From: a virus | Lineage: Duplodnaviria; Caudoviricetes | Length of the DNA: 64,000 nt | IMG/VR virus record: IMGVR_UViG_3300007214_000006 | Direction: 5' to 3' (one strand) | Notes under the pieces: generated by a model | Seen by the model: the letters and a program-made list of their open reading frames with translations, nothing else | What the model was told of the DNA's origin: nothing | Databases searched by the model: none | Made by a program: the position numbers and the translations under genes | Part shown: positions 21,207 through 61,658 of the stretch, one piece after another | Position numbering within the stretch: position 1 is the stretch's first letter | Layout of the letters: each line of letters starts with the position of its first letter

Positions 21207-21215
21207 AAAAACTCC

Positions 21216-42679: not shown

Positions 42680-42707
42680 ATAATAAGGTTGATATGTTTT
42701 TAGTCAA
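42680..42707 (-). promoter_or_regulatory. Possible sigma70 promoter for the sigma-factor/packaging operon, inside a divergent intergenic region
   Basis: Minus strand TTGACT-N16-TATTAT. It overlaps a + strand TATAAT (42679-42684) that may serve the divergent genes. Confidence 0.4.
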
Positions 42708-42732
42708 TATATATTAAAAAGGAACACATTTT

Positions 42733-42972
42733 ATGGCTAATTATAAAAAATGGTCAAATGCGGAACTAGATTTTATTCAAAATAATCATAATCTACTATG
42801 TGATGAAGCATTAGCTTCAAAATTAAGTCAAATGACGAGTCAAAATATTAGTACTGCTATGGTTCGTCGCCAAAGAAGGAAATTATCTTTAAAAAAGAAT
42901 AGAGGGCGCCCAAAAAAAATTATATCGAATAATATAACACAAGTATCCGATAGTAGTGTTGTTGAAGCATGA
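42733..42972 (+). CDS. Small HTH-like DNA-binding protein
   Basis: KWSNAELDFI...DEALASKL...STAMVRRQRRKL pattern with a basic RGRPKK tail; AAGGA RBS. Confidence 0.6.
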   Translation: MANYKKWSNAELDFIQNNHNLLCDEALASKLSQMTSQNISTAMVRRQRRKLSLKKNRGRPKKIISNNITQVSDSSVVEA

Positions 42973-43274
42973 TTACTAAAAAAATAATACTATGTATTGC
43001 GATATGTTGTTGTATGGGAGCGGGGTGGTGTCAGCCAAAACAGATAATCCCACCACAAATAATACCTCAACAAGTTATAGTATATAGTGGACATGCTTCG
43101 TACTATGGATATTATTCTCATTATTACGCACCGGTTGTAACACAAAATATTAGATATTATCCATATATTGAAAATAGATTAGAATATAAGCCTATTATGT
43201 ATTATAATACATATGTAATTCCACATTACAATTATCAAGATAGTTATATCTATCCATACTATTTTAATTATTGA
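42969..43274 (+). CDS. Tyr/Pro-rich small protein with a signal-peptide-like N-terminus
   Basis: MITKKIILCIAICCCMGAGWC followed by YYGYYSHYYAP...; ATGA overlap with the upstream gene. Confidence 0.55.
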   Translation: MITKKIILCIAICCCMGAGWCQPKQIIPPQIIPQQVIVYSGHASYYGYYSHYYAPVVTQNIRYYPYIENRLEYKPIMYYNTYVIPHYNYQDSYIYPYYFNY

Positions 43275-43888
43275 TATAAACTAAAATTAAAATTATTATA
43301 TAATATTTTATAGTTTAATGGAACAGTAATATTCTCGGCAAATTGTGAATTCAAGATAATTGTTTGCGAATTTGGCCATAATGATGTAAAGAACTGAACC
43401 ATAGGATCTGTATAAATATAATAATCTATCTTAGTACCATTTATATAGGATGGGAAACTATTATTAGTTTTCCATTCTATATATTTTTTTATATCTTTGG
43501 TATATATGACTACGTCTATATCTTTATGATTGGATACTCCTTGTACTATAATAGAGCCAGTTAATCCGATATCCACAAACCAGTCTTGGTTTTGTATAAA
43601 AGATCTCAGTGTTTCATTAATTATATTCCATATATCTGGAACTATTATAGTTGTTTTTATCTTATATTTTTGAATAACTTCGGATATAAAATTTTTATCA
43701 TATCTTCTATGAAAACATTTTTTTAAAAATATTGGATCTTCTTGATTATCTAAATAAATATGCTGCGGACAGCTGTTATTACAAAATAAATAAGATGTAT
43801 TAACTATATGTCCTAATCTACATGATTGATATGAGCATGCTGTTGGAGAATTATTGTTATATCGAAACTGACAATCAAATTTATACAT
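43268..43888 (-). CDS. Pol-beta-type nucleotidyltransferase-like protein with a Cys-rich N-terminus
   Basis: IGLTGS-x9-DID plus a downstream KIDYY acidic residue. Start 43888 is preferred over 43912 because it follows the upstream stop. Confidence 0.6.
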   Translation of the reverse strand: MYKFDCQFRYNNNSPTACSYQSCRLGHIVNTSYLFCNNSCPQHIYLDNQEDPIFLKKCFHRRYDKNFISEVIQKYKIKTTIIVPDIWNIINETLRSFIQNQDWFVDIGLTGSIIVQGVSNHKDIDVVIYTKDIKKYIEWKTNNSFPSYINGTKIDYYIYTDPMVQFFTSLWPNSQTIILNSQFAENITVPLNYKILYNNFNFSLYQ

Positions 43889-43890
43889 TA

Positions 43891-45507
43891 TTAACCAATA
43901 TTTTCTAACCATTCTATGGACAAATCATACATACTGACTGATCCTGAATCCTGGTTACCAGCATCAATCCAAGATATATGATATAAATCTCTACTAAAAT
44001 TACCATCAATATTAGTGCAGCATACGATATCAAAAAAATTAGTAGTAGACAGCATTGATGGAGTCATTCCACAACTAGCTAGATTCAGCCAGTCTTGAGA
44101 CTCTGGATTGGAATGTATAGGAATAATGTTGGTTATAAGCGGCATAGCCGCCTCATCACATAAGCAACATTGTGCCACACATTGACTACTTGTTGGAGTT
44201 GGTGTTGGAGTTAAGGCTGGAGTTGGAGTTAAGGTAGCGGTTGGGGTTGGAGTTGGCGTTGGCGTTGGAGTTAAAGGAGGAGGAGGAGGAGGAGGAACAC
44301 AAGGACCGGGTTCAGCATCGTCACAATCTATAGTAAGCACAGGTTTAAGTTGAATCATTCCTGGTGCTATGCACGAAGCAAATAAAATATCTCTACTATT
44401 GTCGCTAATTCTTTCTCCAACCAAAACTATAAATGTTGTACCATCATGACAATCATCTATTAAACAAGATAATCCTACTTGTGCTCCAACTAAATCATTG
44501 CTGTTAGAAACGGTAAGAGTAAAAGAATCTGTCCTCTCCATTGTATAATAATTACCATGTATCTGTTGCATTACCGGAATAAATCCTGGAATTGGTATTA
44601 CTGGATCTATACCAACACAATCTCCTGTATATACATAACTAGGATTTACCTCTTTGACTATGGCCTCCATAAGGCTTCCTAAATTATCCATACATATACT
44701 TTTATCCGCTTGTATTATTGTATTATTAGTTAGTTTTAAAAATGGTTTAAAAGGAGTCCTACTACAGATGTGTCCAGCGCCACATGTAACTTGGACTGGA
44801 TAGCTTATTCCGGGGATATTTATTTTTCTGGTCTTGTAGAGATAAATAGCATAACCGTAAATAGTATTTTTATACTGGATTAATGTTATACCAGATGCAC
44901 AAATTGGAGAATTGGACTGAGGTATACATTCGGGAGGATCAACACAAGCGCACGACGCAGGATCAAAAACTTGAACTCCTGAACAAGGTACATTGCAATC
45001 AAAAGGATTACCGACTCCGCCTCCGCCTCCGCCTCCGCCTCCGCCTCCGCCTCCGCCACTATTACAAACAAATGGATTATTAATATTATTTTCTATAATA
45101 CTTAAAGTATAATTTTTTGGATAAACAGTATCAACCGTTTCATTTCTACTAATATGATTATGTGAACCCAAATTATAAACAATAGCTAATTTTTGGTCAC
45201 AAAATGTGTATGTGTTTGTGATTGGATATCCTGATTCAAACTTATTATTTAATATATCATATTTAAAATTTCTAATAGATTGAGGAGTCCAATTAATGGT
45301 TACAGATCTAGCATTATTATTTGATGTTGTATCCCCAGGATTATAGGTATTAGCATCATTATTGTCTAATAATGTTTTATGATATCTTATATTAAGGCTA
45401 GTATCTGGTAAAATACCAGTATTTTGTATTGTTTCTGAATGATTATAATAGGCCAAATCATTCTGTTTATTTGGTAACAAACCACTATTGATAATATATT
45501 TTGACAT
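43891..45507 (-). CDS. Cys-rich modular protein: family-A N-domain, Gly12 linker, Cys-rich middle, Pro7/PT linker, C-terminal Cys domain
   Basis: N-terminus paralogous to 47296..48030; (CCTCCG)n tract at about 45016-45058; GGTGTA motif at 45554-45559. Confidence 0.75.
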   Translation of the reverse strand: MSKYIINSGLLPNKQNDLAYYNHSETIQNTGILPDTSLNIRYHKTLLDNNDANTYNPGDTTSNNNARSVTINWTPQSIRNFKYDILNNKFESGYPITNTYTFCDQKLAIVYNLGSHNHISRNETVDTVYPKNYTLSIIENNINNPFVCNSGGGGGGGGGGGGGGVGNPFDCNVPCSGVQVFDPASCACVDPPECIPQSNSPICASGITLIQYKNTIYGYAIYLYKTRKINIPGISYPVQVTCGAGHICSRTPFKPFLKLTNNTIIQADKSICMDNLGSLMEAIVKEVNPSYVYTGDCVGIDPVIPIPGFIPVMQQIHGNYYTMERTDSFTLTVSNSNDLVGAQVGLSCLIDDCHDGTTFIVLVGERISDNSRDILFASCIAPGMIQLKPVLTIDCDDAEPGPCVPPPPPPPLTPTPTPTPTPTATLTPTPALTPTPTPTSSQCVAQCCLCDEAAMPLITNIIPIHSNPESQDWLNLASCGMTPSMLSTTNFFDIVCCTNIDGNFSRDLYHISWIDAGNQDSGSVSMYDLSIEWLENIG

Positions 45508-45577
45508 AATTTTGTACTATTACTAATAAAATGTTGATAGATTATAATAAATATACACCATAAAAATATAGTAATGT

Positions 45578-47278
45578 TTATGGTATCAAATCAATAATTA
45601 GTCCTAATGAATAACAACATACTGCTGGGGGTGGCGTATGGGATGGAGTGGGGGTGCAAGTGGGAGTGTGGGTGGGAGTATAAGATGGAGTAATTGAAAT
45701 AGTAGGAGTTAGAGTAGGAGTAATAGTAGTAGTAGGCGTAATAGTAGGAGTAGGCGTAGGAGAAGCACCAATAGTTTTTGATGGCGTGGGTGTCGGAGTC
45801 TGAGTTTTTGTTGTAGTAGTCGTAGGCGTTGGAGTACTTGTTTCACTAATAGTAGGAGTCTGCGTGCTGGTTGGGGTTTTAGTAGGGGTTGTGGTGGGAG
45901 TTGGAGTAGCAGATGGGTTTGGATTTGGGGTTGGCAAATTGGGTATCAAATTATTGCACATACTACCACCAGCACTAAATAAATACGTATCATGATCGTT
46001 ATATGCATCAAGTATTAAAAGAAAATTGTCTGATGCTTCGAATATATATGGAACAGCTTCAGATCCACTGAATCTATTTTTAGGTCCTGATAGTGGTATC
46101 CAACCACTAACATAATCTGTTCCTGGAATAGTAACGAAATTAACTAATTCACTACTATTTAGTAGTATACCATTAACTTTGATGCTAGCTAATGCATTAT
46201 TCTTGATAGCAATTAGAGCATAATATTGTGGACCATCATAATTCATCCGATAAGGAAGTGGAGGAAGTGCTATCGTATATCTTTTTGATAATCTATTAAA
46301 TGGAAAAATAGCATTTATTGATGGATCACCAAGGCAAGCACGCCCTGGGAGGTCTGGTCCACAACCTCTTTTTATTTGATACACAAATATAGGGTATCTT
46401 GCTTTGATGATAGTTGGACTAGTTACAGATAATTTTTCATAACTTTGATATTGTTGTAATGTTACTGATTGATCATTGATAGAAATTATATTATTATTGT
46501 CTACAGATAAAATCTTAAAAGCATCTCCAAGATCACCATTAATACGATTTTGTACATTATTATAATTTTGTGTTAATGGTAAAATAAAAGTTGTATCAAA
46601 ATATTTATATCCATATATTTGACAAATTTGAGGATTACATGCTCCTCCTACCCAAGCATAACACTCGGTGTCTAAAAAAACAGCTATTTTTTCTTTACTT
46701 TCTATCTTAAGTGCCTTATCGAAGCCGCTAGGATATTTAATTTTTACCGCTTGTAAATTTTGTAATGTATATTCTAGAACAGTGTTGCCAGTAACTTTAA
46801 TTGTATTATTATTTGAAGTACTAATTATATTCACATAATTAGCCCACGGTCTGCCAGCTGAAGGAAATGGACATATATAATATAATCTAGATAATTGTTC
46901 TATGGGTAATAATGGTGTTCCATTAGAAGCCGCTTCCATACGCAATAAATAATGACATGTAATAGCTTTATTTGATATTATTTTTATGCCCCTATAACTT
47001 GGTACATGTTCTTGAGAAAAATACATACTAAGATATTGATTGTTAGGCAATTTATAAAAACCTATATTATTAGAGTTTATAATTGCTGTGTAAGCTTCTC
47101 CAAAATATTCAATAGACACCACTGTTCCTGGTTCTCCAAGAAAGTATATATAATTTTCAAAAAGATGGTAGAACGCAGGCAAATCAACCAAATAGTGACC
47201 TGGAAAAGCAAAATAAAATTCTTTACTTAAACAAGTGTCTGTCTGTGATTGTGCTTGTATGTTATTTGAAATATCCAT
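45578..47278 (-). CDS. IgGFc-binding (FCGBP N-terminal)-like domain protein with a long PT linker
   Basis: ALKIESKEKIAVF, FKILSVDNNNIISIN...PTIIKARYPIFVYQ...GDPSINAIFPFNRLSKRYTI...ASIKVNG; ends CCYSLGLIIDLIP. Confidence 0.65.
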   Translation of the reverse strand: MDISNNIQAQSQTDTCLSKEFYFAFPGHYLVDLPAFYHLFENYIYFLGEPGTVVSIEYFGEAYTAIINSNNIGFYKLPNNQYLSMYFSQEHVPSYRGIKIISNKAITCHYLLRMEAASNGTPLLPIEQLSRLYYICPFPSAGRPWANYVNIISTSNNNTIKVTGNTVLEYTLQNLQAVKIKYPSGFDKALKIESKEKIAVFLDTECYAWVGGACNPQICQIYGYKYFDTTFILPLTQNYNNVQNRINGDLGDAFKILSVDNNNIISINDQSVTLQQYQSYEKLSVTSPTIIKARYPIFVYQIKRGCGPDLPGRACLGDPSINAIFPFNRLSKRYTIALPPLPYRMNYDGPQYYALIAIKNNALASIKVNGILLNSSELVNFVTIPGTDYVSGWIPLSGPKNRFSGSEAVPYIFEASDNFLLILDAYNDHDTYLFSAGGSMCNNLIPNLPTPNPNPSATPTPTTTPTKTPTSTQTPTISETSTPTPTTTTTKTQTPTPTPSKTIGASPTPTPTITPTTTITPTLTPTISITPSYTPTHTPTCTPTPSHTPPPAVCCYSLGLIIDLIP

Positions 47279-47295
47279 AAATTTATTTTTCTATT

Positions 47296-48030
47296 TTAAG
47301 ATACATATTGGCATGAGTATAATCTAACAATAGCTGTGGATGCTTCATCACTAAAAAATGGTATTTCTATATCGGTTTGTAGACTGGTAATAGTGTGTAT
47401 ATTAATCCAATCAGATAATGGTATAGACATATTATCAAAAAATTTAATCTGTAATAATAAACATACTGTTGGAATAGCAGAAACTATAACACGAACTTTG
47501 TGTACAGAGTTTTCAAAAAAATAACTAATACTATTAGTGAAATCACACATCTCTGGTGGTCCAATGATTGGATCATCAGGCTCTATCCTGCAATCTAATG
47601 TGTGTTCAGATTTATTAACTGTGGTAAATTGATAATTTATCGGATAAGATAATAAACTATCAGAAAATCTTGTCCAATGAGTATTACCAGCTTGAAATAC
47701 TATAGAAATTTTTTGATTACATAAATTATATGAATCTATAATTGGATAGTTTTCATAAAATTTATTTGTAAATATATTATATGAAAAATTTCTAATAGAT
47801 TGAGGAGTCCAATCAATAGTTACTGATCTAGCGTCGTTGTTTGATGTGAGATTGTTATCTTTATAAGTAATACTATTAAAATTTTGATCAAATAGTGTTT
47901 TATGATATCTTATATTATAATTAGTATTTTGTAAAATCCCAGTATTTTTTATTGTTTCTGAACGATTGTAATATGAGGAATAGTTCTGACTATTTATAGG
48001 TAAACTGCTATCAATAATATATTTAGACAT
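47296..48030 (-). CDS. Two-domain protein: family-A N-domain plus family-B domain
   Basis: N-terminus matches 43891..45507 (RYHKTL, ARSVTI.WTPQSIRNF); C-terminus CLLLQIKFFD...PLSDW...VRLYSC matches the N-termini of 48053..50164 and 50358..51713. Confidence 0.75.
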   Translation of the reverse strand: MSKYIIDSSLPINSQNYSSYYNRSETIKNTGILQNTNYNIRYHKTLFDQNFNSITYKDNNLTSNNDARSVTIDWTPQSIRNFSYNIFTNKFYENYPIIDSYNLCNQKISIVFQAGNTHWTRFSDSLLSYPINYQFTTVNKSEHTLDCRIEPDDPIIGPPEMCDFTNSISYFFENSVHKVRVIVSAIPTVCLLLQIKFFDNMSIPLSDWINIHTITSLQTDIEIPFFSDEASTAIVRLYSCQYVS

Positions 48031-48052
48031 AATATTTTAGCCATTTTAAACA

Positions 48053-50164
48053 TTAATATGGAGATATTAATGCATACACCGTATCTTTATTCGGAATAAA
48101 CGTAGGCGAAGGCTTAATAAATTCACCAGGTTTCCAAATTATATTGGTATACGGAAAATCTTTTACATGATTCAAAACATTATTGGAATTATTTTTAAAT
48201 AAAGCAAATTTAAAATATGATCTAATCCAGTCTCTAATATCATTAGTAGTTGGAGTATCAAAATTTACAATATTAATTAATGATCCATTAGCAATATTAG
48301 CAGTTGATCTAGCTATACCATCAATTACAGGAAATACTCTGCCATCAGGATGAGAATTTTTTATATAATATAAACTATGTTTAGGATAATATTTATAAAA
48401 TACATTAAATTGTGGATTATTTACTAAAGATTCTTCTGGATCATTTATCAATTTACTTACAGGATACCAAGATCTGCTAAATTCATCCCAGGCATAATTT
48501 GGCCATCCAAGATACATCATTTGTAATATTTCAGTTGGACATTCTATTTTATCTATATTTATAGTGGATCCCCTAGGGGAGATATCAGTAATATTTATCT
48601 GAGGCAATGTTTCAATTCTTATAGACGGAGCATAAGAACATTGCTGATTAGATCCACAGCAATATACTGGGGTTTGAGTTGGCAAAGGTGTTCTAGAAGG
48701 CACTGGGGTATTTATATCAGGACAATTTTGACTGCTGAAAGAAAGTCGTCCAGTATTAAACTCATAAGTATATGAACCTATACAATCTGTCTCTTCACAG
48801 GTATAATCCAATGTTGGCACAAGAGTTAATGGAAATCTATAGGATGTTAAAAGTGTTCCTCCTATATTATTAAATATATATGATTCATTCATATCCTCAA
48901 CCATTATTCCATCTTTATATGCATATACTGTCATATTCGTATATCCATTGCCCTTCTCTGCAAACCAATTTGCTCTAGCAACTAAGGTAATTTTGTTTAC
49001 ATTAAAATTTTCTTTTATTTTTTTTATGTCTATATATATTTCTTCATTTCCAAGAATTCCAGTATTATCTCCAGCCCAATATATAAATGGCGGATCATAA
49101 GCGCCGAAACTACGAGAAGGACAATATCCTAGTTTTTTACTAATATAAGGATATATTAAATAGGATATAGTATCTAAATCTTGTCCAGCATTTACGGGCA
49201 TAGTATATCTAAAAACTAAATAATCTGCTCCTATAATATTAGGAGGATCTCCAGATGCTGGGCGAGAAATACTTGGTGTTGGTGTTGGCGTTCGAGTTTG
49301 TGTTCTTGTGATGGTTGGTGTGATAGTTTGTGTTATTGTCGGAGTGGGGGTTCTTGTAATAGTGGCAGTTATTGAGGTGGTAGGAGTGGGTGTTGGAGAT
49401 GCTCCAATAGATCTAGATTGGGTTGGAGTCAATGTGTTTGTACTTGTTATTGTTGGAGTTTGTGTTATAGTTGGCGTAATACTTAACGTTGGTGTGACTG
49501 TTGGAGTATTTGAAGCAGTAATTGTTATGGTGGGTGTTGGCGTTATGGTCGGCGTTACAGTTGTTGTTGGTGTTCTAGTCGGATCAGAAGTAGGTCTAGG
49601 TGTTTTAGTAATAGTAGTGGTATTAGTTATTGTCGGAGTAATCGTTGGAGTGCGAGTAACAGTTGGAGTAGGAGAAGGAATTATACACTCATAAGCACAT
49701 AAATTTGCTAAAATATCACAAGTTTCTGTATTATGTGTAATATCTAACCTTAATCGTCTAGGAATCATAATAGGATTATATGAACCACTTATATTTTCAG
49801 TATCTTTTGGTCTGACAAACGGATTATTAACATTAAATGGCGTTGATCCACATTGTTCAGATACTGGCATATCTTTGGGAATAATATCACAAGGTAAATC
49901 CGGATCCGGAGGATCAGCGTCCTCACAGCAATAAAGTAGTCTAAATTCTAAGTATGCTGTATTTTCTAATAAATAAATAATAGTATCTGTCTCAAGAGCA
50001 TCTATATATGCAATAGCAATCCAGTCTGACAGACTGATATCATCAGAATCATAGAATTTAACTTGAGCAACTAAACATTGCTTAAGTTCAGATAATATAA
50101 TTTTTAAAGATAATAAGTTATCTTTTATAGAATGATTTAGGATATAAGGTATATTGCATAACAT
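48053..50164 (-). CDS. Modular protein: family-B domain, PT linker, inserted domain, family-C domain
   Basis: Collinear paralogue of 50358..51713 with about 190 extra aa (DLDT...YWAGDNTG..GNEEIYID). Confidence 0.75.
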   Translation of the reverse strand: MLCNIPYILNHSIKDNLLSLKIILSELKQCLVAQVKFYDSDDISLSDWIAIAYIDALETDTIIYLLENTAYLEFRLLYCCEDADPPDPDLPCDIIPKDMPVSEQCGSTPFNVNNPFVRPKDTENISGSYNPIMIPRRLRLDITHNTETCDILANLCAYECIIPSPTPTVTRTPTITPTITNTTTITKTPRPTSDPTRTPTTTVTPTITPTPTITITASNTPTVTPTLSITPTITQTPTITSTNTLTPTQSRSIGASPTPTPTTSITATITRTPTPTITQTITPTITRTQTRTPTPTPSISRPASGDPPNIIGADYLVFRYTMPVNAGQDLDTISYLIYPYISKKLGYCPSRSFGAYDPPFIYWAGDNTGILGNEEIYIDIKKIKENFNVNKITLVARANWFAEKGNGYTNMTVYAYKDGIMVEDMNESYIFNNIGGTLLTSYRFPLTLVPTLDYTCEETDCIGSYTYEFNTGRLSFSSQNCPDINTPVPSRTPLPTQTPVYCCGSNQQCSYAPSIRIETLPQINITDISPRGSTINIDKIECPTEILQMMYLGWPNYAWDEFSRSWYPVSKLINDPEESLVNNPQFNVFYKYYPKHSLYYIKNSHPDGRVFPVIDGIARSTANIANGSLINIVNFDTPTTNDIRDWIRSYFKFALFKNNSNNVLNHVKDFPYTNIIWKPGEFIKPSPTFIPNKDTVYALISPY

Positions 50165-50260
50165 ATTTATGGTAGTCTCCTAATATTTTATAACAACCAA
50201 TTATTATATGTATATTTACATATAATAGCAACACAATGATTTATATAAACACAAAAATTA

Positions 50261-50344
50261 TTATGGGATAATGGTTATTATTTGAGTTAATGAATAACAA
50301 CAATTGTCATCTGGATCACTCTGAATTTTTATATTATTTTGCAT
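50261..50344 (-). CDS. Micro-ORF (27 aa) carrying a CCYSL C-terminal motif
   Basis: MQNNIKIQSDPDDNCCYSLTQIITIIP; the tail matches CCYSLGLIIDLIP at the end of 45578..47278. Confidence 0.45.
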   Translation of the reverse strand: MQNNIKIQSDPDDNCCYSLTQIITIIP

Positions 50345-50357
50345 ATTTAAAACCTTA

Positions 50358-51713
50358 TTAACATGGTACTAATACAACATAAACAGTATCGTCTCTGGGA
50401 GTAAACATCCAATTAGGCATCATTGCGTCTCCAGGAAACCAGTGTATATCAGTATATTCCCAGTAGCCGATATATTTTAGATTATTTGCTGTTCGTGGTA
50501 GACTTGTGTCTCGAATATCTAATTTATGAAATCTAAAGGATTTTTCTACCCATGCTCTTACGTCATCAGAGGTGCTATCATTAAAATTCTTTATTTTTAT
50601 TAAAGAATATTCAGGTAAGTCTAGAGTCAAATAACTAATGCCATCTATACTTGGGGTATCTGTGATTCCATAACTATTATGTGTATATAATTCAAATCTT
50701 TTAAAGCCAGCTGTGCCTGGATTGTCATCTTTACCAAAGTGTGGCACATCATAAGGAGAAAGACCATAAAAGTTCAGAAGTTTATAATTGCAAATCTCCT
50801 CAACATCTATAGGAACGCCTGTTTTTGCAGTTGAAAAATTTTTAGCTGGTAATGATGATATATGCACAAATGGAGCAAATCCGCAACCGACATACCTAGC
50901 AAAATTATTACAGCACTGATAATCGCTAGGGACCTTTCTTTTTGGTGTTTTTGTTGGGGTCGGAGTTGCTGTGCGAGTTAGAGTTGGAGTTACGGTTCTT
51001 GTGGGAGTTAGAGTTGGAGTAACACTAATTGTAGGAGTAACGGAAGCTGTAGGTGTAGGAGAAGCCCCTGGTGATTTTGTTACTGTTGGTGTTGGAGTCG
51101 ATGTTGATGTGACTGTTAATGATGGTGTTACTGTTGGAGTAACGCTAATAGTAGGTGTTAGGGTTGGCGTTGGAGTATTTGTTTGCGTAGGTGTTGGGGT
51201 TGGTGATGGAACAATACATCTAATGCTACACAAATGAACAGATAGATCGCATGTGTTTAAATTATGGTCAATAGTTAGTTTTATATTTCTGGGAATCATT
51301 ATAGGATTAAATGGATTATTTAATCTATCAGTATCTTTGGGTCTTACGTATCCGTCTGTAATACTGAATGGAGTTGATCCACAAGCATTTAAGATAGCAT
51401 CCGGGCCATCTGCTTTAATCGTATCGCACGGAACATCGTCTAGTGGTGGATCAGGATCTGAAACTGAACAACATGAATAAAGTCTAAATTCTATTTTTGA
51501 TGTTTGATTATCCAAAAGTAATTGTATTTCTGTTTCTAAGCCGAATATATATGCAACATCCACCCATTCTGTAATAGGATTATTAGATAAATCATAAAAT
51601 TTAGCCTGTAAAGCTAAACACTTTAATAAGTTAGAAATAGTTAATTTTAAAAATAACGTATTGTCTTCAATACGATGATCTAAAATATATGATATTGAAC
51701 ATTGTGTAGCCAT
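50358..51713 (-). CDS. Modular protein: family-B domain, PT linker, family-C domain
   Basis: Shares CGSTPF...VRPKDT...NPIMIPR and IDGI...D(I/V)R.W...DTVY with 48053..50164. Confidence 0.75.
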
Positions 51714-51730
51714 TTATATTTTTGGTTTAT

Positions 51731-52498: not shown

Positions 52499-52507
52499 TG
52501 TACTGGC

Positions 52508-53863: not shown

Positions 53864-53874
53864 AAATTAAACCT

Positions 53875-54165
53875 TTATGGTACGAAGTTAATTATTGCAG
53901 AAATTGGGCCATACGGGTTATAAGGATTTGTTGGAGTAGGATCTGGCGTGGACGGTGGGCATTGAAAAATAGGACCGTTAAGAGATAATGCAAAATTTGC
54001 AGCATCTTGCGACGGAACTCTCTGATTATTTTTTATTTCGTTGGTTATTCTATTAAGACCACCTCTGTTAGCTTCAGAAATTTTTGATGAATTCGGTGGA
54101 CTATGAAATGTTTCTGAAGAATGAACAGATTGATTATGGAAATATGTAGGTTTATAAGGTTTCAT
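53875..54165 (-). CDS. Small Pro-rich protein (likely start 54165, MKPYKPTY; 96 aa)
   Basis: An ATGA overlap with the upstream stop favours 54165 over the track start at 54222. Confidence 0.55.
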   Translation of the reverse strand: MKPYKPTYFHNQSVHSSETFHSPPNSSKISEANRGGLNRITNEIKNNQRVPSQDAANFALSLNGPIFQCPPSTPDPTPTNPYNPYGPISAIINFVP

Positions 54166-54563
54166 GGTCTGGATAGTCCTGGTACGGGAGTAACGGATGG
54201 ATTTGAACTTACTGATGGACATAGAACGCCAAGTGTTACTGTTATTGGCCCTTTTGTTGTATCAATAACTTTTCTGCCTTCACTTCCTGGTTTTAATATA
54301 TTATTTATTGCTTTTTTATAAACTTCTGCTGCTTTATCGGCAGGAATACCATTCGGATATTGTCTCTCTAAATTTTTCATCATTTTATCAAGAGCTGTGC
54401 TTTCGTATATTACCTTATCTCCTTGAATTACTCTGATAACTCTATCTTTATCCTTACCTCCTGTTGGAGGATCAGGACAATTCTTATAGTCATTTTCATT
54501 TTTTCCAACAGAATCTTCTAATTTATCATTTGGAATATCGTTGCAATCATTTGGAATAGGCAT
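54162..54563 (-). CDS. Hypothetical protein (133 aa)
   Basis: ORF track; GGAG RBS. Confidence 0.65.
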   Translation of the reverse strand: MPIPNDCNDIPNDKLEDSVGKNENDYKNCPDPPTGGKDKDRVIRVIQGDKVIYESTALDKMMKNLERQYPNGIPADKAAEVYKKAINNILKPGSEGRKVIDTTKGPITVTLGVLCPSVSSNPSVTPVPGLSRP

Positions 54564-54566
54564 ACC

Positions 54567-54905
54567 TTAACTCTCCTTAACAAAAGTTTTTTGATATAAT
54601 TTATATACTATGCCATCATCAAAATGATCAACGCCAAATTCTCTGTTAAGCGCTCTAGTAAAATCTACTCCAAATTCTAATTCATATGGATAAGAAAAAT
54701 TACTTAGATATTTGTCTTGCTCTGTGAGTTGATTTAGAACATTTTTATCTATATCATTTCTATCATAATAAATTCTATTATTATTACAATAATATGTGTT
54801 AGTGGGAGGAAATTCTGTGGAACTTAAATCCCAAACATCGAATGGATCTAATAATGGTGGAGATGGCACAACAGCTGGGTCTGGCTTTGGTACATGTATT
54901 GGCAT
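54567..54905 (-). CDS. Hypothetical protein (112 aa)
   Basis: ORF track; AGTGTA late motif at 54942-54947. Confidence 0.65.
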   Translation of the reverse strand: MPIHVPKPDPAVVPSPPLLDPFDVWDLSSTEFPPTNTYYCNNNRIYYDRNDIDKNVLNQLTEQDKYLSNFSYPYELEFGVDFTRALNREFGVDHFDDGIVYKLYQKTFVKES

Positions 54906-54988
54906 ATAATTTTTCCTATAAAAGTAATATCACTATAATTATACACTACTTTTAAAAATTTATAATAGAATTAAGTATTGATAACTTT

Positions 54989-55324
54989 TTAATTATTTAT
55001 TGTTTTCCATGGATTAGCTAGCCATAGGCTATATTGATGAGGAAACAAATTTGCTAACTTAGCCTCTGGAATAGTATCATTATCTAAAGTTGATGATTTT
55101 TTATTAGATGATACTATTTTACTTTTATTTAAGATTCTATCATTACTAAAAGATAAGTTTGAATAATTATCTTTTAAAGAAACATTATCTATTTTTGGTA
55201 AAGTAATCTCAAAATTATAGCCATATTTATTATTCACACTTATTTTATCGTTATAATTATTCCAAGACAATATTGGAGCATCATAACCAGTATCAATTTT
55301 ATTTTTAATATCATAGATGGGCAT
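54989..55324 (-). CDS. Small family-D protein
   Basis: Shares IY.IK...Y and ITLP...F(S/A)NDRIL with 61044..61355. Confidence 0.65.
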   Translation of the reverse strand: MPIYDIKNKIDTGYDAPILSWNNYNDKISVNNKYGYNFEITLPKIDNVSLKDNYSNLSFSNDRILNKSKIVSSNKKSSTLDNDTIPEAKLANLFPHQYSLWLANPWKTINN

Positions 55325-55407
55325 AAAATATATCCTTTTATTAGGTTATTAAATTAATTACAACGGTTTACATAATCTCTGAAATCCCGTCTCATATCGA
55401 AAAAGCG

Positions 55408-58400
55408 TTATTCTAGACTATCACAAAACGCGCAATACGCAACACAATCTCCATCACAACAGCGTCTTTGTTCAGCATAATCAAAAAATAGAAATTCAGC
55501 CATTCGTGTGTCTGGATTAATTCTATAGTATACGCATTTACCTGTTTGTACATCAATACCAGGACCATCCCATTGAAAAGGACCAGTCAAGTTAGGATCA
55601 TAAGCCGGTGCCGCGGGACAGCAAATTGGAAAATGATTCGTACAAGGTTCATCTCCGTTAAGAGGTGGATCTCTTAGAAGTACAGTGCCCATGCTTATGG
55701 GAAATCCTTCTGGACATACTGGACAAATATCTGGCGGGGGGTTATGACATGGCTCACAAGGGTGACAACAATCACAACTTGGCCAACCAACTGGCATGGT
55801 TTGTAAAGAACCATCATCTCTATAACCTCTTCTCCAATATCTATGATCTGTTTGTTTTGTGTCTCCGCAAGATTCTTCATAGGTACCATTCCATTCACAA
55901 AAACTAAAACCAGGAGCACACTGTTTGAGTTGTGATATTGCTGGTTGGTCGGATAGTTCTTTTAATCTGGATTGTAACAATCCTATAGTCGCAGAGATTC
56001 CAACTATCATAGCCTCAATACCAGCCATTTTCATTACATAGGCTGCTATTTTAGAGGCTAACTTAGCTAGCTCTCCCGTTAAACGTTTTACCGCCATGTC
56101 CATTTGTTTTTCAAATTTCCAAGCTCTCATTACTGCCCGTACAAGGGGTTCTATACCAGGAGCTTTTCTCCAGCCAGTTGGAAAATGAAAAATTGGGCGA
56201 CCATTTTCACCGGTTTCAATAAATGATCCTTCAAAAATATCTCTATCTAGATAATTATTAACAAATTTTGTAAGATTATTTAGAGTATCTGCATATTCTC
56301 GTTTTGCTTGAGCCCAGGATGTTTGTGCCGAAAGTAGATCAGCTTCTTTGGCGGTGCGTTGACCAATTAAGCTTGCATACCCAGCTTTAAGGCCGCCAAG
56401 TATTTTATGCAACGCTGCTAATGTTCCTAATAATGCTGCTAATGTTCCTAATATATATAATAATTCTCCTTTATCTATATAGGTTTCATAACATCCGCAT
56501 TCGTCTGTAAAAGCGTCATTAAGATTAAACCCGCCTCTGGTATAAAAGGGATTTTCACAAGGAAGAAAGACTGGATCAGGAACAAAAGATATTGGTAGCA
56601 TTGCTAGTATTGCATCAACAGATTCTAGTGGCAATAAATTATCTTGTACATCTTGAACAGTTAAAGTCTGCTCTGACGATACTGCAGCCGAAGCTATAGC
56701 AGATGATACCGCAGATGCTACACTACTAAGACTACCTTTATCTCCTTTAGCATTAACAAAATAACCTCTATATGAGCCAGCAGAAATTTGAACATCAAAT
56801 TGTGTTCCTTGGTAATTACCGTATTGAACCATGCTACCAAAACCGGATGGAGCAAATCTAAATACACTAGTCTTAACACTGGTTTGTGTTGATAGATCTA
56901 TAAGATCTCCTTGAGATCCAGCATCTATCAATGGCTGATTTAAAAATCCGTCCTCTGGATCATAATATGTGATAGTTGATGATGTATCAGAGCATATTAG
57001 TTTGCCACTAGATATAACATATGGTACAGATACAATGGATCCATCGCTAGATAGTGTTAATAGTTCTGATCCTGGAGTATATGAGGTTGGAACAGAAATA
57101 CTGAAACTAGATGGTTTAGCAGTAGTTCCTATGGTAGAAAAAGTAAAAGAATTATCATCACTAGAAATGTATAGTGTGCCGGTATTGGATATTGAACCAA
57201 AAGTTATTGTTGTGTCAGAGTCATAAGAAACACTAACATTGGTGCCGGTTGGTATTGTTGTTGGGATATCTGTGTCTATATTCTGAGAAAGATAAATACA
57301 TGAAGTATCTTTATAGAAATTTCTAGCAGCACCAGTATTAAAGTCTGCTAACCATTGATCATAGTTTCCAAATTTGCATTTTTGAGCATAAAATACAGAT
57401 CCGCTCGGATTAGCGATAGTTTTTCCATAAAGCCAAGATCCACTAGCAGGACAATTGCCTGTGGTATATGTATAAGATAATTCTCTATCAGTAGTATATT
57501 CTTGACATGTTTCTTCTGTTCCAGCAATAACTGTTCCATCTTCTACAAAACAGCAACCACTACCCAACCATATTGGATAGCTAAATTCACCAACTCCGTT
57601 ATTTGAAACACTCGCTACGGTAACATATTGATTGTCTAAAGGTCCATCAAATTCAAACTGATTAATTAATAAACCCGGAACATCATTTTCTGCTGGTATA
57701 GGTCCTATTCTGGATGGTTTGGTATTTACGCCATTAAAACGAAAAATATAACCAATATCAGCATCTTCGCCTGGTCGTTTTGGTGTTGGTAAAACTGTTA
57801 ATATTGTTCTAACCGGTACAGTATCTGATACTTCATAACTCATTATAGAGGGCGGTGCTGGAATATTTGGTTCCGAAGCATATATTAGGATATTTTCGTC
57901 CGTACCAAAAATAATTGTAGAATTTATTTCTACAGGTATTTCCTCTGCTGGTTTAACCACTCTGGATGATAATGTTCCATACCCATCAATTATTAATACT
58001 TTATTATAATTAAATTCTGGAACTGTGATATATGATCCTGATAAATCACTTGCAGATGAGAACATTACCATTTTCGAGGAGGTAGTAAAGTATCTTGTTA
58101 GAGGCACAGTAATAGAACTATTAGTGAGTGGTAAATATACATTTATTTTAGTGCCATATATCTGCGTTGCCCTCGATCTAATAACAGTATCAAAAACAAA
58201 TAAATCCTCTTGGTTCTCTATTTCATTGTTTATAATACTAGTATCAATAGGTCTAATAAAATTTATATCTGGTCTGAGTCCTTCTGTAACTAGTCCAGAA
58301 ATTTTTGGTTTAAAATTATTATACCATTGAATAATAGGATGATTAGAATCAGATGTTGAACAATCGTTATTGTATAGATAAGTTAATAACTTTTGCTCAT

Positions 58401-58704
58401 CTGGTCTTAAGTAATAAATATTTGTAGGATCATTTTCGTCATAAATAAGAGTAGATCCATCATTTTCGCTTCCGGATAGGTTCTGATCACAAGGTATAAT
58501 ATCTTTGATACGATATTGGTTTTGTGCCCACCAAGGATCACTAGGAGATTTATTTACAATCTCTGGCGTTACCGGTAATTCTAAATTAGTATTGTTTCCA
58601 TTGCACTCAAGAGTATATACTGGTGATTTGTATAATACCAAAAAACAATCATTATCTTGAGATGCTGGTAGTTTATTGTTAAAATTAGTAAAAAAAGTTG
58701 CCAT
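55408..58704 (-). CDS. Large Cys-rich multidomain protein (FN3-like region, hydrophobic coiled-coil region, Cys-rich C-terminus)
   Basis: QYVTVASVSNNGVGEFS (FN3-like), GCCF motif, LLYILGTLAALLGTLAALHKILGG, many CxxC; GGTGTA motif at 58742-58747. Confidence 0.7.
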   Translation of the reverse strand: MATFFTNFNNKLPASQDNDCFLVLYKSPVYTLECNGNNTNLELPVTPEIVNKSPSDPWWAQNQYRIKDIIPCDQNLSGSENDGSTLIYDENDPTNIYYLRPDEQKLLTYLYNNDCSTSDSNHPIIQWYNNFKPKISGLVTEGLRPDINFIRPIDTSIINNEIENQEDLFVFDTVIRSRATQIYGTKINVYLPLTNSSITVPLTRYFTTSSKMVMFSSASDLSGSYITVPEFNYNKVLIIDGYGTLSSRVVKPAEEIPVEINSTIIFGTDENILIYASEPNIPAPPSIMSYEVSDTVPVRTILTVLPTPKRPGEDADIGYIFRFNGVNTKPSRIGPIPAENDVPGLLINQFEFDGPLDNQYVTVASVSNNGVGEFSYPIWLGSGCCFVEDGTVIAGTEETCQEYTTDRELSYTYTTGNCPASGSWLYGKTIANPSGSVFYAQKCKFGNYDQWLADFNTGAARNFYKDTSCIYLSQNIDTDIPTTIPTGTNVSVSYDSDTTITFGSISNTGTLYISSDDNSFTFSTIGTTAKPSSFSISVPTSYTPGSELLTLSSDGSIVSVPYVISSGKLICSDTSSTITYYDPEDGFLNQPLIDAGSQGDLIDLSTQTSVKTSVFRFAPSGFGSMVQYGNYQGTQFDVQISAGSYRGYFVNAKGDKGSLSSVASAVSSAIASAAVSSEQTLTVQDVQDNLLPLESVDAILAMLPISFVPDPVFLPCENPFYTRGGFNLNDAFTDECGCYETYIDKGELLYILGTLAALLGTLAALHKILGGLKAGYASLIGQRTAKEADLLSAQTSWAQAKREYADTLNNLTKFVNNYLDRDIFEGSFIETGENGRPIFHFPTGWRKAPGIEPLVRAVMRAWKFEKQMDMAVKRLTGELAKLASKIAAYVMKMAGIEAMIVGISATIGLLQSRLKELSDQPAISQLKQCAPGFSFCEWNGTYEESCGDTKQTDHRYWRRGYRDDGSLQTMPVGWPSCDCCHPCEPCHNPPPDICPVCPEGFPISMGTVLLRDPPLNGDEPCTNHFPICCPAAPAYDPNLTGPFQWDGPGIDVQTGKCVYYRINPDTRMAEFLFFDYAEQRRCCDGDCVAYCAFCDSLE

Positions 58705-58793
58705 CTGTAATCTCCTAAAAATTTATATATTTATATTGAAATACACCAACACTCATATGGTTAAAATTATATAAAATGATCAAAATTTATATT

Positions 58794-59876
58794 TTAATCA
58801 TCTAAGCATAGAGTGAGCGTTGTGGCACCATTGTTGTCTTCGTTACATTCTAAAGTTTGATTAGCATCAACACAATTATCGCATCCGGCTGTTTTTACCC
58901 ACATTTGTGAACCTCCGTCACATTGCCAATAGCAATCTCCACAACATTTTTCATACTCCTCTTTAACTTTGGAACAATTAGTGATTTTAGCGGACACGGC
59001 CGATGCTCCAGTTAAAGGATTAGTTATTCCTATGCCAAAAGGTGGAGCACTTTTTTGGGTAAAAAAGCCATCCATAACAGGAACTCTTAATTTCCATGAT
59101 ACTTGTCCATAACTATTTTGATATGTGTCTTTGAAAGTATACTCAATATATACGGTGTCACCTATCTTTATGCATTCAAGACCCACTAATAGTATAGCAT
59201 GATTTGTTTTTCCAATATTATCACAGTTTAATTTTTCAATAACAGATAGTGGTTCCTTTAATCTTGATACTGTGTAAGTTGGTACCTCTCCTGGTGGACC
59301 AATTCCATAAATAGCACCAGAGATAAACTCACCAAAATCATCGGGTAGTCTAGCACCATCAATAGCACACATAATTGGACCATCATTACAAAGAGTACTA
59401 GAAATTTGTCCTATTGTTTTTGGTTGTTTATTTATTATTTGGTAAGTTGCCGTAACATAGCATTTGATAGATGGATCACATGGTGGCCCATCATTAGATT
59501 GAGTAGCTTCACTGCATTTAACTGGAATTTTTAGCTCACTATTATTTAAAAAAAATGCATAACTTTTAAATGCTTTGGTGATCTTTTCTTTAAGAGCATC
59601 ACCATCAAATTGTGGATTTTTTTGTTTCTCACAATTTATATAAATATCAATCCATGTGCTAAAAGCATCTGGCAATGATTGACTATTAATAGCCGCCTCG
59701 TTACATTTTAAAATGCTGCTATAATCAATATTAATATCACATGATGCTGCTAAAGATTGTAGCAGAGTGTTGGTCATGCATGTTAGTTGATCTATTCCGT
59801 CTATTCTCTGTTCTATGTTTAATTTTGTTTCAAGAGTCTCACATGTTTTTAGGCTATTACAATCTGGTTGTGACAT
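58794..59876 (-). CDS. Cys-rich hypothetical protein (360 aa)
   Basis: ORF track; C-terminal CCGDCYWQC...CDNC...C. Confidence 0.7.
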   Translation of the reverse strand: MSQPDCNSLKTCETLETKLNIEQRIDGIDQLTCMTNTLLQSLAASCDINIDYSSILKCNEAAINSQSLPDAFSTWIDIYINCEKQKNPQFDGDALKEKITKAFKSYAFFLNNSELKIPVKCSEATQSNDGPPCDPSIKCYVTATYQIINKQPKTIGQISSTLCNDGPIMCAIDGARLPDDFGEFISGAIYGIGPPGEVPTYTVSRLKEPLSVIEKLNCDNIGKTNHAILLVGLECIKIGDTVYIEYTFKDTYQNSYGQVSWKLRVPVMDGFFTQKSAPPFGIGITNPLTGASAVSAKITNCSKVKEEYEKCCGDCYWQCDGGSQMWVKTAGCDNCVDANQTLECNEDNNGATTLTLCLDD

Positions 59877-59878
59877 AC

Positions 59879-60133
59879 TTATTCTACAGCTCCTTGATAT
59901 GTTATCATAATATTAGGTGATGGTTGAGCGCCATGTTGTGGTATTGTGGGGTGTCTGGTTTCTCCAAGTGCTACAAATAAGCCTGTTGATGTTAATATAT
60001 ATATTCCGGTTATATCGTTTATTTTTTTGGGGGGTTTGATAAGCATATATTGTCTTTGTGTGGCAAATAATTTCCACCCTATGGGAAGAGAATCATAATC
60101 AGAATTTTCTTGAGTTTTTATATTATATATCAT
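59879..60133 (-). CDS. Small protein with a family-D-like N-terminus
   Basis: MIYNIKTQENSDYD resembles MPIYDIKNKIDTGYD. Confidence 0.6.
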   Translation of the reverse strand: MIYNIKTQENSDYDSLPIGWKLFATQRQYMLIKPPKKINDITGIYILTSTGLFVALGETRHPTIPQHGAQPSPNIMITYQGAVE

Positions 60134-60142
60134 ATTGATTTC

Positions 60143-61042
60143 CTATTGTCCCCCACCTTCAGCATCACATCCTTCTGGGCATTCACAAGGAGGATTATCT
60201 CCTGGCGCAACATTATCACAAACACATTCTAAATATGTATTGTATACTGGTTCGTTGCAATATTCATGACAAGGCACACATGTTATATCTCCAAATGGTT
60301 GTGACTCAAACGGATAAGACTTTAAGACTCCGAAAGTATTAACAAAATTTGTTGCGCTAGTATAACCAGTTGGGCCACCAAATACCATACCTTTGAAATA
60401 TGGATCTTGATCAAGATCTTTTATATATGGAAAGGGACCCACTAATCCATTTGGACAACCACCAAACGATGTTTCGTCTTTTAGACATCCAACCCACCAT
60501 TTTGTGCAAGCAGAACAATCACTATTGGGAGGTAACGGTTCTATGCTATATCGTTGGAAAAATGTATATAATTCTACATCTCCTACAATTCCTAAACGAG
60601 ATGCTATTGTAGCTAATATTGTTTCTATTGTGGGGCTAAGTACCAGACCTGGTTTAGTAAGTACTGTGTCGAGAATATACGCTTCTTCAGGAGATATATT
60701 CTCACAAAAAGAAGAACCAGAAGTATTTTTTGGAATAAAACAATATAAACTGAATGGATCGCCGTTTTCAAGATCATCACAAGCAACCCATCTGTTCCAC
60801 GGAGGATTTCCTCTTAGTACTGGAGGTATAAAAACATCAGGATCAATAGTACCTTTGGTTGGGGGTTTGGGTATATATAACTTGGGATTTGCTGGATCTA
60901 AATAACCACCATCATAAAAAAACCAAACACAAATTGGTTCACGATTAACATTGGGAGGATCATTACGACCAGGAGGAGGCAAAGGTGGTTTGGGTTGTGG
61001 AGCAAAAGTGGGTTCGTCTGGTGGTCTGGGATTATATGTCAT
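60143..61042 (-). CDS. Pro/Cys-rich hypothetical protein (299 aa)
   Basis: ORF track; PPPPG N-terminus and Cys-rich C-terminus. Confidence 0.7.
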   Translation of the reverse strand: MTYNPRPPDEPTFAPQPKPPLPPPGRNDPPNVNREPICVWFFYDGGYLDPANPKLYIPKPPTKGTIDPDVFIPPVLRGNPPWNRWVACDDLENGDPFSLYCFIPKNTSGSSFCENISPEEAYILDTVLTKPGLVLSPTIETILATIASRLGIVGDVELYTFFQRYSIEPLPPNSDCSACTKWWVGCLKDETSFGGCPNGLVGPFPYIKDLDQDPYFKGMVFGGPTGYTSATNFVNTFGVLKSYPFESQPFGDITCVPCHEYCNEPVYNTYLECVCDNVAPGDNPPCECPEGCDAEGGGQ

Positions 61043-61043
61043 G

Positions 61044-61355
61044 TTAGTTTTTTATTCTTTTGGGTGTGGGTTTATGAATATTATTCGATAATGGCACTAT
61101 TGAAGATAATTTTATAACATCTATAATATCATTGATTTTAGGACTCTTAGAATCATCACTACTAATAATATAGCTATTTGATAATATACGATCATTAGCA
61201 AATAATAATAACGTGTTGGTACCAGGAAGATTAATATCTGGTAAATCTATGGTATATGGGGAATAATAAATGTTCTGATTGCTTTGTTTTAGTTGTTCAG
61301 AATTTATTTCTGAAATGTTATAGTCTCTTTGGTATGCTATGTTGTATAGGTTCAT
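61044..61355 (-). CDS. Small family-D protein, first gene of the Cys-rich late cluster
   Basis: FANDRIL motif; GGTGTA motif at 61401-61406. Confidence 0.65.
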   Translation of the reverse strand: MNLYNIAYQRDYNISEINSEQLKQSNQNIYYSPYTIDLPDINLPGTNTLLLFANDRILSNSYIISSDDSKSPKINDIIDVIKLSSIVPLSNNIHKPTPKRIKN

Positions 61356-61658
61356 GTTGTTTTTTAAAAATAATGATGAATAAAAATACTATTAAAATAG
61401 TACACCTTATCATTTTAAAATAGGTTATGCAGATTGTGTGGGTTTGTGCTCATGGTGCTATGCATCTTATAGATATTAGAAAAATATATCTATGTTACCA
61501 GAATAGTAAGGATCATAAGAATAGTATTATGGGTTTAATAGATAGGATTAGGTGATACTTTTATATTTTTGAGTGCTTATTGTTTATGGATGTCCTTGCG
61601 ATTTTTATAAATACTAGAATATTCAAATAAGAAATGAAAAAACCCCCTAGTTCATATA

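Follow-up and report, generated by a model that had tools for sequence, protein, structure and literature searches.

The described systems closest in architecture to the locus treated here are, by analogy, the branched complexes of multiple receptor-binding proteins (RBPs), known from the tailspikes TSP1-4 of the Ackermannviridae (CBA120 type) and from the Klebsiella phages KP32, K11 and KP34, which have an anchor domain, a branching domain and a docking peptide (PMC11414711, PMC6872550, PMC13352976). The locus is a block of genes at positions 43268–61355 on the minus strand of a 64,000-nucleotide stretch of DNA (the window), which corresponds to bases 57333–121332 of the 122,965-bp IMG/VR phage record IMGVR_UViG_3300007214_000006; its source is an uncultured freshwater phage. 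Late-type promoters, a layout of anchors and cargo, stalked heads, the co-inheritance of adaptors with their cargo and a divergence like that of a fibre cassette together suggest that the block encodes a set of accessory host-surface proteins. Our reading, which we put forward tentatively, is that of a late, fast-evolving, modular anchor-adaptor-cargo set, its members probably mounted on the virion as fibres or appendages.

As in the branched RBP systems, neighbouring genes of surface type share common N-terminal anchor or adaptor modules and carry swappable distal heads, a likeness in architecture only; some members lack the anchor and would, in the block, be recruited via a partner, and cassettes are exchanged between otherwise near-identical phages. 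Models of the two domain families termed A and B below gave no significant sequence or fold match to branched-RBP anchor or branching domains in BFVD, the PDB or the Atlas, with the family A core not searched alone. Unlike the branched systems, the block has no beta-helix depolymerase and contains proteases instead of glycanases, its heads are placed on long Thr/Pro stalks and its proteins are rich in cysteine. It is also located about 30 kb from the tail genes, as measured to the tape measure gene, which agrees with an earlier interpretation of the window (the sequence-only reading) that had set it apart from the canonical tail genes; attachment to the particle we infer from the genes. Surface-exposed Ig-like or adhesin domains that are not essential for assembly are known from T4 Hoc-type Ig-like decoration. 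Virion proteins of mycobacteriophages are glycosylated by phage-encoded glycosyltransferases acting on structural proteins, as reported by Freeman et al. 2023 (PMC10527164, cited in PMC12619734). The block differs from both of these systems in its architecture of anchor, adaptor, stalk and head and in its cysteine content, and its glycosylation and exposure would be presumptive.

All genes of the block are oriented in the same direction, as the sequence-only reading had stated, but there are 17 open reading frames (ORFs) of at least 80 amino acids (aa) and not about 19. The coding share of 43268–61355 is 96.6%, and no further free ORF of at least 30 aa is present there. The dense cysteines that had been remarked upon are confirmed: they make up 165 of 5837 residues (2.83%) in the block, against 84 of 13,314 (0.63%) in the window's other proteins (Fisher p 2e-31). 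In the family of g55408, 28 of 33 cysteines are invariant, compared with 15% of the other residues, and in the family of the stalked B-C-stalk-D proteins 11 of 14 are, compared with 24% of the others. Judged from these alignments, the cysteines of the block are structurally constrained. Many of them sit in CxxC-type clusters or runs, which might form disulfides after lysis or could equally bind metal. The 123-kb record, itself incomplete, yielded no match to Erv1/ALR thiol oxidases, thioredoxin or DsbA.

Dense stalks, defined as at least 20 Pro or Thr in 30 residues, occur four times in the 123-kb record, and all four belong to the block (g43891, g45578, g48053 and g50358). The Pro-Thr linkers with a shared GASPTPT motif, also pointed out earlier, are indeed there: three of the four stalks contain one copy each, at residue 504 of g45578, residue 254 of g48053 and residue 216 of g50358, and the motif occurs nowhere else in the record. 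Including relatives, ten copies are found across four phages, once per carrying stalk; it is present once per stalk in the B-C-stalk-D orthologues, and in the orthologues of the IgGFc_binding protein from the related loci L006 and L009, not L011. The three copies of the window use different synonymous codons, and gene conversion as their source was rejected for this reason. Together with the recurrence of the motif, these codon differences indicate that GASPTPT is kept by selection at the protein level and not by recent DNA exchange.

The four paralogous domain families that had been proposed are recovered by BLASTP, at E-values of 2e-42 to 2e-8. Family A comprises the first approximately 140 residues of g43891, g47296 and g51731. 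Family B, of about 80 residues, forms the carboxy-terminus of g47296 and the amino-terminus of g48053 and g50358, in which it is followed by family C (the next 80 residues or so) and, at the distal end, by family D (the last approximately 190 residues). A fifth family, new here, is formed by g61044 and g54989, which are 39% identical over 69 residues (E 2e-7). There is no additional copy of any of the five families elsewhere in the record. The absence of signal peptides is likewise upheld, no block protein having an N-terminal hydrophobic segment by a Kyte-Doolittle heuristic. The adhesin- and protease-like domains fared unevenly: IgGFc_binding is found by Pfam, the case for M8 is indirect, and Ig and FN3 amount to a weak fold likeness, no block protein matching the Pfam families Ig, FN3 or Peptidase_M8 even at E 10. 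Profile searches with four of the block alignments against PDB sequences returned nothing meaningful.

The motif RGTGTA is present in front of all the genes for which it had been reported, those starting at 45507, 54905, 58704 and 61355 as well as head and tail genes. On the minus strand, 8 of its 24 copies fall within the 4.6% of the DNA that is intergenic (binomial p 7e-6); all eight are located 42–57 nucleotides (nt) before an ATG, with an A/T-rich, TATA-like element downstream of each. In the block, these are at 61401–61406 (51 nt before g61044), 58742–58747 (43 nt before g55408), 54942–54947 (42 nt before g54567) and 45554–45559 (52 nt before g43891), all on the minus strand. The four in the head and tail module, on the same strand at 36767, 31406, 21009 and 17060, precede the probable portal gene and the genes at 30939, 20445 and 15918. 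In L006, L009 and L011 the motif is found at orthologous intergenic sites, 35–46 nt before the ATG, with the sites in front of g54567 and g43891 kept in all three. By position and conservation, RGTGTA is a real, promoter-like signal of the same class as the sites of the structural genes. The block can fairly be taken to be expressed late, because its promoter motif is common to the portal, head and tail genes. Simple scans of the block for sigma-70 promoters and for terminators gave results no better than shuffled sequence.

A profile of family A, made from the A-B proteins, retrieves 63 representative clusters among 1.84e9 proteins. The match begins within the first 60 residues in most hits, and the proteins are 200–1100 residues long. 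Their carboxy-terminal cargo includes BspA-type leucine-rich repeats (LRR), Peptidase_S8 subtilase, FGE-sulfatase (a C-type-lectin fold), Sortilin/Vps10 and FNIP repeats. When 60 family A proteins were compared with the PHROGs, only phrog_15511, of which the function is not known, recurred; in g48053 and g50358 its match falls over the Thr/Pro stalk. The first 65 residues or so, although conserved between paralogues, come out as disordered in AlphaFold2 (AF2) models, while residues 65–140 form a small beta core, with a pLDDT of 80–90 in g47296. By these searches, family A represents a new N-terminal domain without annotation in Pfam or PHROGs; by analogy, its layout, in which a conserved docking module at the amino-terminus carries varied cargo, is that of phage RBPs. 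It is carried by three proteins in the window and by four in L006.

Two of these proteins are putative adaptors. The first, g51731 (51731–52498, minus strand, 255 aa), consists of the family A anchor and a B-like domain (B'), and the second, g47296 (47296–48030, minus strand, 244 aa), of the anchor and B. The proteins without an anchor that begin with B are g50358 (50358–51713, minus strand, 451 aa), made up of B, C, a Thr/Pro stalk with GASPTPT and a D head, and g48053 (48053–50164, minus strand, 703 aa), in which B, C and a stalk with GASPTPT are followed by a phrog_24956 domain, a short second stalk and the D head. The model of family B resembles FN3 and Ig sandwiches (Z 5.0–6.5, r.m.s.d. 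2.8–3.4 over 72–84 residues), which is within the range expected for common arrangements. Modelling of family pairs as complexes, proposed along with the sequence-only reading, yielded a weak pass for g51731 with residues 1–170 of g50358: the median score is 0.58, against 0.24 for the best control, the runs share at least 25% of their contacts and the partner has a pLDDT of at least 56. Of 80 solved complexes, 58 reach the mark applied, as do 2 of 110 mismatched pairs, but at scores up to 0.60 those passing it include only 7 of the 80 solved complexes and both passing mismatches. The prediction thus lends weak support to adaptor-cargo binding between g51731 and g50358.

The IgGFc_binding protein g45578 (45578–47278, minus strand, 566 aa) has the IgGFc_binding head, a stalk of about 110 residues with GASPTPT and a 13-residue tail containing CC, which is conserved in three orthologues. 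Its head matches PF17517 (E 2.8e-23, 83.1 bits against a cut-off of 25.6, model positions 3–280 of 297), and its fold neighbours in the Atlas are all PF17517 proteins, surface proteins of the type IX secretion system (T9SS) of Bacteroidota, with TM-scores of 0.79–0.86. Residues 11–450 are therefore like the T9SS PF17517 proteins of the Bacteroidota/FCB group by both Pfam and fold. Thr/Pro linkers are common in T9SS-type cell-surface proteins. Unlike the T9SS adhesins, g45578 has no signal peptide and no sorting domain (no Por_Secre_tail or CHU_C by Pfam, no N-terminal hydrophobic segment) and ends in the stalk and CC tail.

The third family A protein, g43891 (43891–45507, minus strand, 538 aa), contains the anchor, a glycine run, a Cys-rich segment, a beta-sandwich, a stalk and an alpha/beta C-terminal domain, an architecture that is the commonest among family A relatives. 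In its AF2 model the sandwich, residues 205–400, has a pLDDT of 75–97, compared with 67 for the whole model. Neither this model nor that of g47296 (pLDDT 62) gave a fold match above the common-arrangement range in BFVD, the PDB, a PDB-wide search, AFDB clusters or the Atlas, again with the family A core not searched alone; the best match of the two is a PLAT/LH2-like sandwich with Z 5.2. The gene is overlapped by 22 nt by the last gene of the block, g43268 (43268–43912, minus strand, 214 aa), which encodes a Cys-rich amino-terminus and a nucleotidyltransferase-like G-S-x10-D-x-D motif. Five orthologues keep this motif unchanged, together with a later K-I-D-Y-Y-I; no Pfam or PDB profile match to a nucleotidyltransferase was obtained. 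To judge from these motifs, g43268 may be a modifying enzyme or assembly factor for g43891. By motif it resembles a minimal Pol-beta-type nucleotidyltransferase, and five cysteines of its N-terminal part are invariant. In the related locus L008, a homologue of g43268 (48%) follows a g43891-like gene of only 31% identity.

A core of five genes is present in all five phages compared: g54989 (54989–55324, 111 aa), g54567 (54567–54905, 112 aa), g54162 (54162–54563, 133 aa), g53875 (53875–54222, 115 aa) and the protease gene g52508 (52508–53863, 451 aa), all on the minus strand. Of these, g54162 is the best-conserved block protein (70–79%), g54567 is among the best conserved (62–80%) and g53875 is small and Pro-rich. 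The consecutive g54989, g54567 and g54162 all start with Met-Pro-Ile, as do the L006 orthologues of g54989 and g54162.

The protein encoded by g52508 has an Ig-like N-terminal domain and a predicted leishmanolysin-like zinc metalloprotease domain. H265, E266 and H269 (the HExxH motif), H347 and M388 are invariant in 17 homologues, with H347 the candidate third zinc ligand and M388 the candidate Met-turn. It is like MEROPS M8 in its HExxH, in the distant invariant His and in the invariant Met, and three of the 17 homologues match PF01457 (best E 5.4e-7), while g52508 itself does not, even at E 10. Its fold neighbours in the Atlas are mostly Peptidase_M8 (TM-score 0.42–0.44); several of them are fused to Big or Calx-beta domains, as g52508 is to its Ig-like domain, for which the Atlas neighbours are Ig_3 (TM-score 0.25–0.30). 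There is also a weak matrilysin match around the HExxH. Unlike bacterial M8 proteins, g52508 is below the Pfam threshold, has a TM-score of about 0.43, is phage-encoded, lacks an export signal and ends in a short C-x3-C-x2-C tail. It is best described as M8-like and a predicted protease, not filed as a member of M8.

Proteases recur in this slot, M8-like (with a second metalloprotease copy in L006 and L011), S1-like and S8, and this bears on an alternative in which the products are late but free, namely soluble adhesins and proteases released at lysis. Receptors on neighbouring cells and on debris could thereby be stripped or masked, or a protein or matrix layer loosened for escape of the progeny. 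The lack of export signals, hence release by lysis, the distance of the block from the tail genes and the failure of PHROG and fold searches to find homology to structural proteins are all in keeping with this. A common N-terminal anchor-type domain on many different cargoes is, however, hard to explain for free enzymes, as is the co-occurrence of adaptors and cargo, and the long stalks suggest tethering; we consider free products unlikely.

The variability of the block among relatives favours the anchor-adaptor-cargo reading. Presence and variability in related phages had been suggested as a check, and the block proves syntenic in at least four of them and highly variable. Assemblies made independently agree with the window in gene order and flanks, namely L006 (IMG/VR), L009/L010 (NCBI), L011/L012 (ENA), L023 and L024 (IMG/VR), all labels of related loci. 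For this reason the block is not an assembly chimera or a non-phage insertion, which the sequence-only reading had named as a possible refutation; it is authentic phage DNA. A chimera could have been suspected from the GC skew, which reverses sign across 44–54 kb, but this change is due to C-rich Pro and Thr codons on the coding strand. The G+C content of the block is the same as that of the rest of the window (33%) and its promoter motif is common to the rest of the phage, so that with the matching assemblies a chimeric origin is practically excluded.

Divergence was measured against G001, the phage of L006. The core genes from sigma to capsid are 83–97% identical (sigma-like 93, TerL 90.5, portal 89 and major capsid protein (MCP) 97), with gmd at 82, whereas the block proteins are 31–76% identical, with g55408 at 32, the protease at 40, g58794 at 41 and g43891 at 45. 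Better kept are the A-B adaptors (71–73%), g54162 (72%) and g54567 (76%). From core to block, identity drops sharply at the sigma gene. A cassette of fibre genes that includes one for an Mtd_N protein (24796–30573) is also divergent, at 40–61%, while the flanking head genes are at 89–97%. Further along, the genes at 13495–23783 have almost no counterpart in the 52-kb record of G001.

Among phages with cores that are about 90% identical, whole cassettes come and go. The genes g51731 (A-B') and g50358 (B-C-stalk-D) are both present in our phage, L006, L009 and L024 and both absent in L011/L023. The gene g48053 is confined to our phage, L009 and L024. In the window, L006, L009 and L011/L023, g47296 (A-B) is followed by the IgGFc gene, g43891 and g43268; this whole group is missing from L024. 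Extra genes of L006 and L011 encode an S8 subtilase and a family A protein whose H/D/S signature, assigned from sequence, is trypsin-like. In the more distant L007, the slot upstream of sigma, ERCC4, TerL and portal is likewise taken, by three giant genes of which at least one has family A; in L008 (9022–13341), family A genes adjoin a gene for a protein of more than 1440 residues with four FGE-sulfatase stretches. The sharing of domains and the joint gain and loss of cassettes fit mutually assembling proteins, as far as comparison of the genes can tell.

Such turnover, with a divergence much faster than that of core genes and a position adjoining early-gene cassettes, would also fit a hypervariable host-takeover or anti-defence island. 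The promoter motif held in common with structural genes speaks against this, as do the large size of the proteins and their adhesin, protease and stalk features, which are typical of the extracellular kind; no defence-related domain was found by Pfam, the PADLOC library not having been searched. An island of this kind appears very improbable. As an observation apart, the trypsin-like His/Asp/Ser signature of the L006 family A protein (704 aa, 16382–18496) goes undetected by Pfam, and the protein shares a further shuffled domain with the N-terminal extension of the g54567 orthologue of L006 (6442–7209). In the 704-aa protein, this domain is located after the protease-like part and runs from about Y-G-C-N to the C-terminal Cys.

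The upstream half of the block (61355–54989) starts with g61044 (61044–61355, minus strand, 103 aa), a cysteine-free paralogue of g54989 with orthologues in L011/L023 and L024. This is followed by g60143 (60143–61042, minus strand, 299 aa, 15% Pro and 5.4% Cys), which has a CxxC-rich C-terminal module, an orthologue in L024 at 35% and a weak match to a 418-aa protein of L011 (E 2e-4). The next two genes, g59879 (59879–60133, minus strand, 84 aa, 52–59% identical in L006, L009 and L024) and g58794 (58794–59876, minus strand, 360 aa, 6.1% Cys), are always paired. The latter encodes a Cys-rich C-terminal module, in place of which its L006 orthologue has a Thr/Pro stalk. The largest and fastest-evolving block protein, g55408 (55408–58704, minus strand, 1098 aa), is 29–34% identical to its orthologues while the MCP is at 97%. 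It contains conserved Cys-rich islands on either side of a variable helical stretch, a helical hairpin and, inside the variable stretch, a transmembrane (TM)-like hydrophobic helix (residues 748–769). A search of 5.8e9 proteins gave only two hits to it; Pfam, the PHROGs and the PDB returned no match, and the Atlas nothing usable. In L024 it is not at its usual place between g60143 and g54989, and could lie past the end of that contig.

These features raise the alternative of two or more unrelated modules, in which the downstream genes (54905–43268) would be a fibre kit and the upstream genes (g61044, g60143, g59879, g58794, g55408 and g54989) a Cys-rich metal-binding or membrane-active set, for example internal or ejected proteins or an envelope-penetration device. 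The upstream genes have promoters of their own at 61406 and 58747, lack Thr/Pro stalks in this phage and contain the CxxC-rich modules as well as the TM-like helix and helical hairpin of g55408; the displaced or missing g55408 of L024 and the family A genes of L007 and L008, which stand without upstream genes in the loci fetched, also agree with a division. On the other hand, the halves adjoin and are co-oriented in every close relative, the stalk on the L006 orthologue of g58794 links them in style, and the conserved five-gene core straddles the boundary. We hold this alternative, which partly overlaps the anchor-adaptor-cargo reading, to be unlikely as a full account; the upstream genes, and g55408 in particular, may still form a module of their own.

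Several points weigh against the anchor-adaptor-cargo reading. The block is situated between the early-gene cassettes and the packaging operon and not beside the tail genes, and none of its proteins matches a tail fibre, spike, decoration or baseplate protein by PHROG, Pfam or solved structure. Its products are known here from their genes alone, from which virion attachment is deduced, and the modelled adaptor-cargo pair passes its mark weakly. The upstream half has no stalks and no recognised binding domains, and the predicted TM-like helix of g55408 is easier to reconcile with an internal or membrane-active role than with a fibre. The occurrence of family A genes without the upstream half in the loci fetched from the distant L007 and L008 may mean that more than one system is contained in the 17 genes. 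Hypervariability, finally, fits anti-defence islands as well.

If the anchor-adaptor-cargo reading is right, the set might work as follows. The block would be transcribed from RGTGTA-type promoters, of the class used by the portal, head-tail and tail genes, possibly via the sigma-like protein of 41900–42514. Cytoplasmic folding would be expected of its products, which lack an export signal. The Thr/Pro stalks may receive a coat of sugar from the phage's own glycosyltransferases, which is plausible because the record carries GT2 and GT1 glycosyltransferase genes and gmd. Family A, a conserved peptide of about 60 residues modelled as disordered plus the small beta core, would dock different proteins at one site. 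The A-B proteins would serve as adaptors, the Ig-like B recruiting cargo without A, that is, the B-C-stalk-D proteins, and the IgGFc_binding protein would perhaps be recruited by an adaptor via the conserved CC tail. Located at the ends of the stalks, the heads (IgGFc_binding, D, phrog_24956, the g43891 sandwich and the M8-like protease; in relatives, S1-like and S8 proteases, LRR, FGE-sulfatase and Sortilin-type domains) would bind or cut the host surface, and cassette exchange with rapid divergence would retune the kit to changing hosts.

A bolder version seems quite unlikely to us. It would make the block a new kind of appendage, in which the family A dock and the Ig-like B hang sugar-coated, mucin-like stalks with Cys-locked heads, including working metallo- and serine proteases, aimed at an S-layer or at the T9SS adhesin carpet of Bacteroidota, with GASPTPT as a processing, priming or hinge site. 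Such an appendage would be a protein-cutting counterpart of the polysaccharide-depolymerase tailspikes.

Should the products be on the particle, they would represent a third way to exchangeable host recognition, beside the swapping of tail-fibre tips and branched tailspike complexes, based on a portable N-terminal anchor family, long and probably glycosylated stalks, and proteases as heads. They would help to explain how phages of freshwater bacteria not yet in culture, perhaps Bacteroidota, pass protein-rich surfaces, and would supply a defined anchor domain by which accessory receptor-binding genes could be spotted in metagenomes. Even with the products off the particle, the block remains a clear case of a late-gene island that evolves many times faster than a core of 90–97% identity.

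Transcription of the block runs from 61355 to 43268, preceded by early-gene cassettes at 64000–61659. Beyond its end, the minus strand contains a Sigma70_r2-like gene (41900–42514; Pfam E 3.9e-5, just under the cut-off), of which the product would fit an earlier-made phage sigma factor that reads RGTGTA promoters. This gene (in the region 41900–42757) heads an overlapping operon of gmd, the ERCC4 nuclease gene and then TerL, and upstream of it there are two sigma-70-like hexamer pairs and no RGTGTA. All on the same strand, gmd and the ERCC4 nuclease gene lie between the sigma-like gene and TerL (36768–38795), which is followed in transcription order by the probable portal gene, the MCP gene (31471–32481, phrog_2522) and the Mtd_N fibre cassette; the tape measure protein (3965 aa), also encoded there, has a PhageMin_Tail match.

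A 222,380-bp contig carries proteins identical to g55408, g52508 and g50358, so that the phage genome is probably larger than the 122,965-bp record and jumbo-sized, the record being a fragment. No tRNA and no Rfam family were found in the searched sequence. Neither the block (by megablast) nor g45578 (by tblastn) has a match among 50,697 phage records, and the best identity of TerL, 26–27%, is to Bacillus siphophages, from which we conclude that there is no cultured relative. The Moraphages (PMC12619734), considered as a lineage, were rejected, their tails being contractile and T4-like. The taxa of the Atlas neighbours give a weak hint of a host among the Bacteroidota, with which the G+C content of 33% agrees; a profile scan of genome contigs with the IgGFc alignment, directed at the host, retrieved no relative.

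Between the block and the sigma-like gene, a divergent two-gene unit is located on the plus strand (42733–43274). Its products are a basic protein of 79 aa and a 101-aa protein with a very Tyr-rich body, preceded by a signal- or lipoprotein-like amino-terminus. At this site the ORF list of L006 contains only a 103-aa ORF, and a size-matched pair (78 and 100–103 aa) is present at the same place in L009 and L011.

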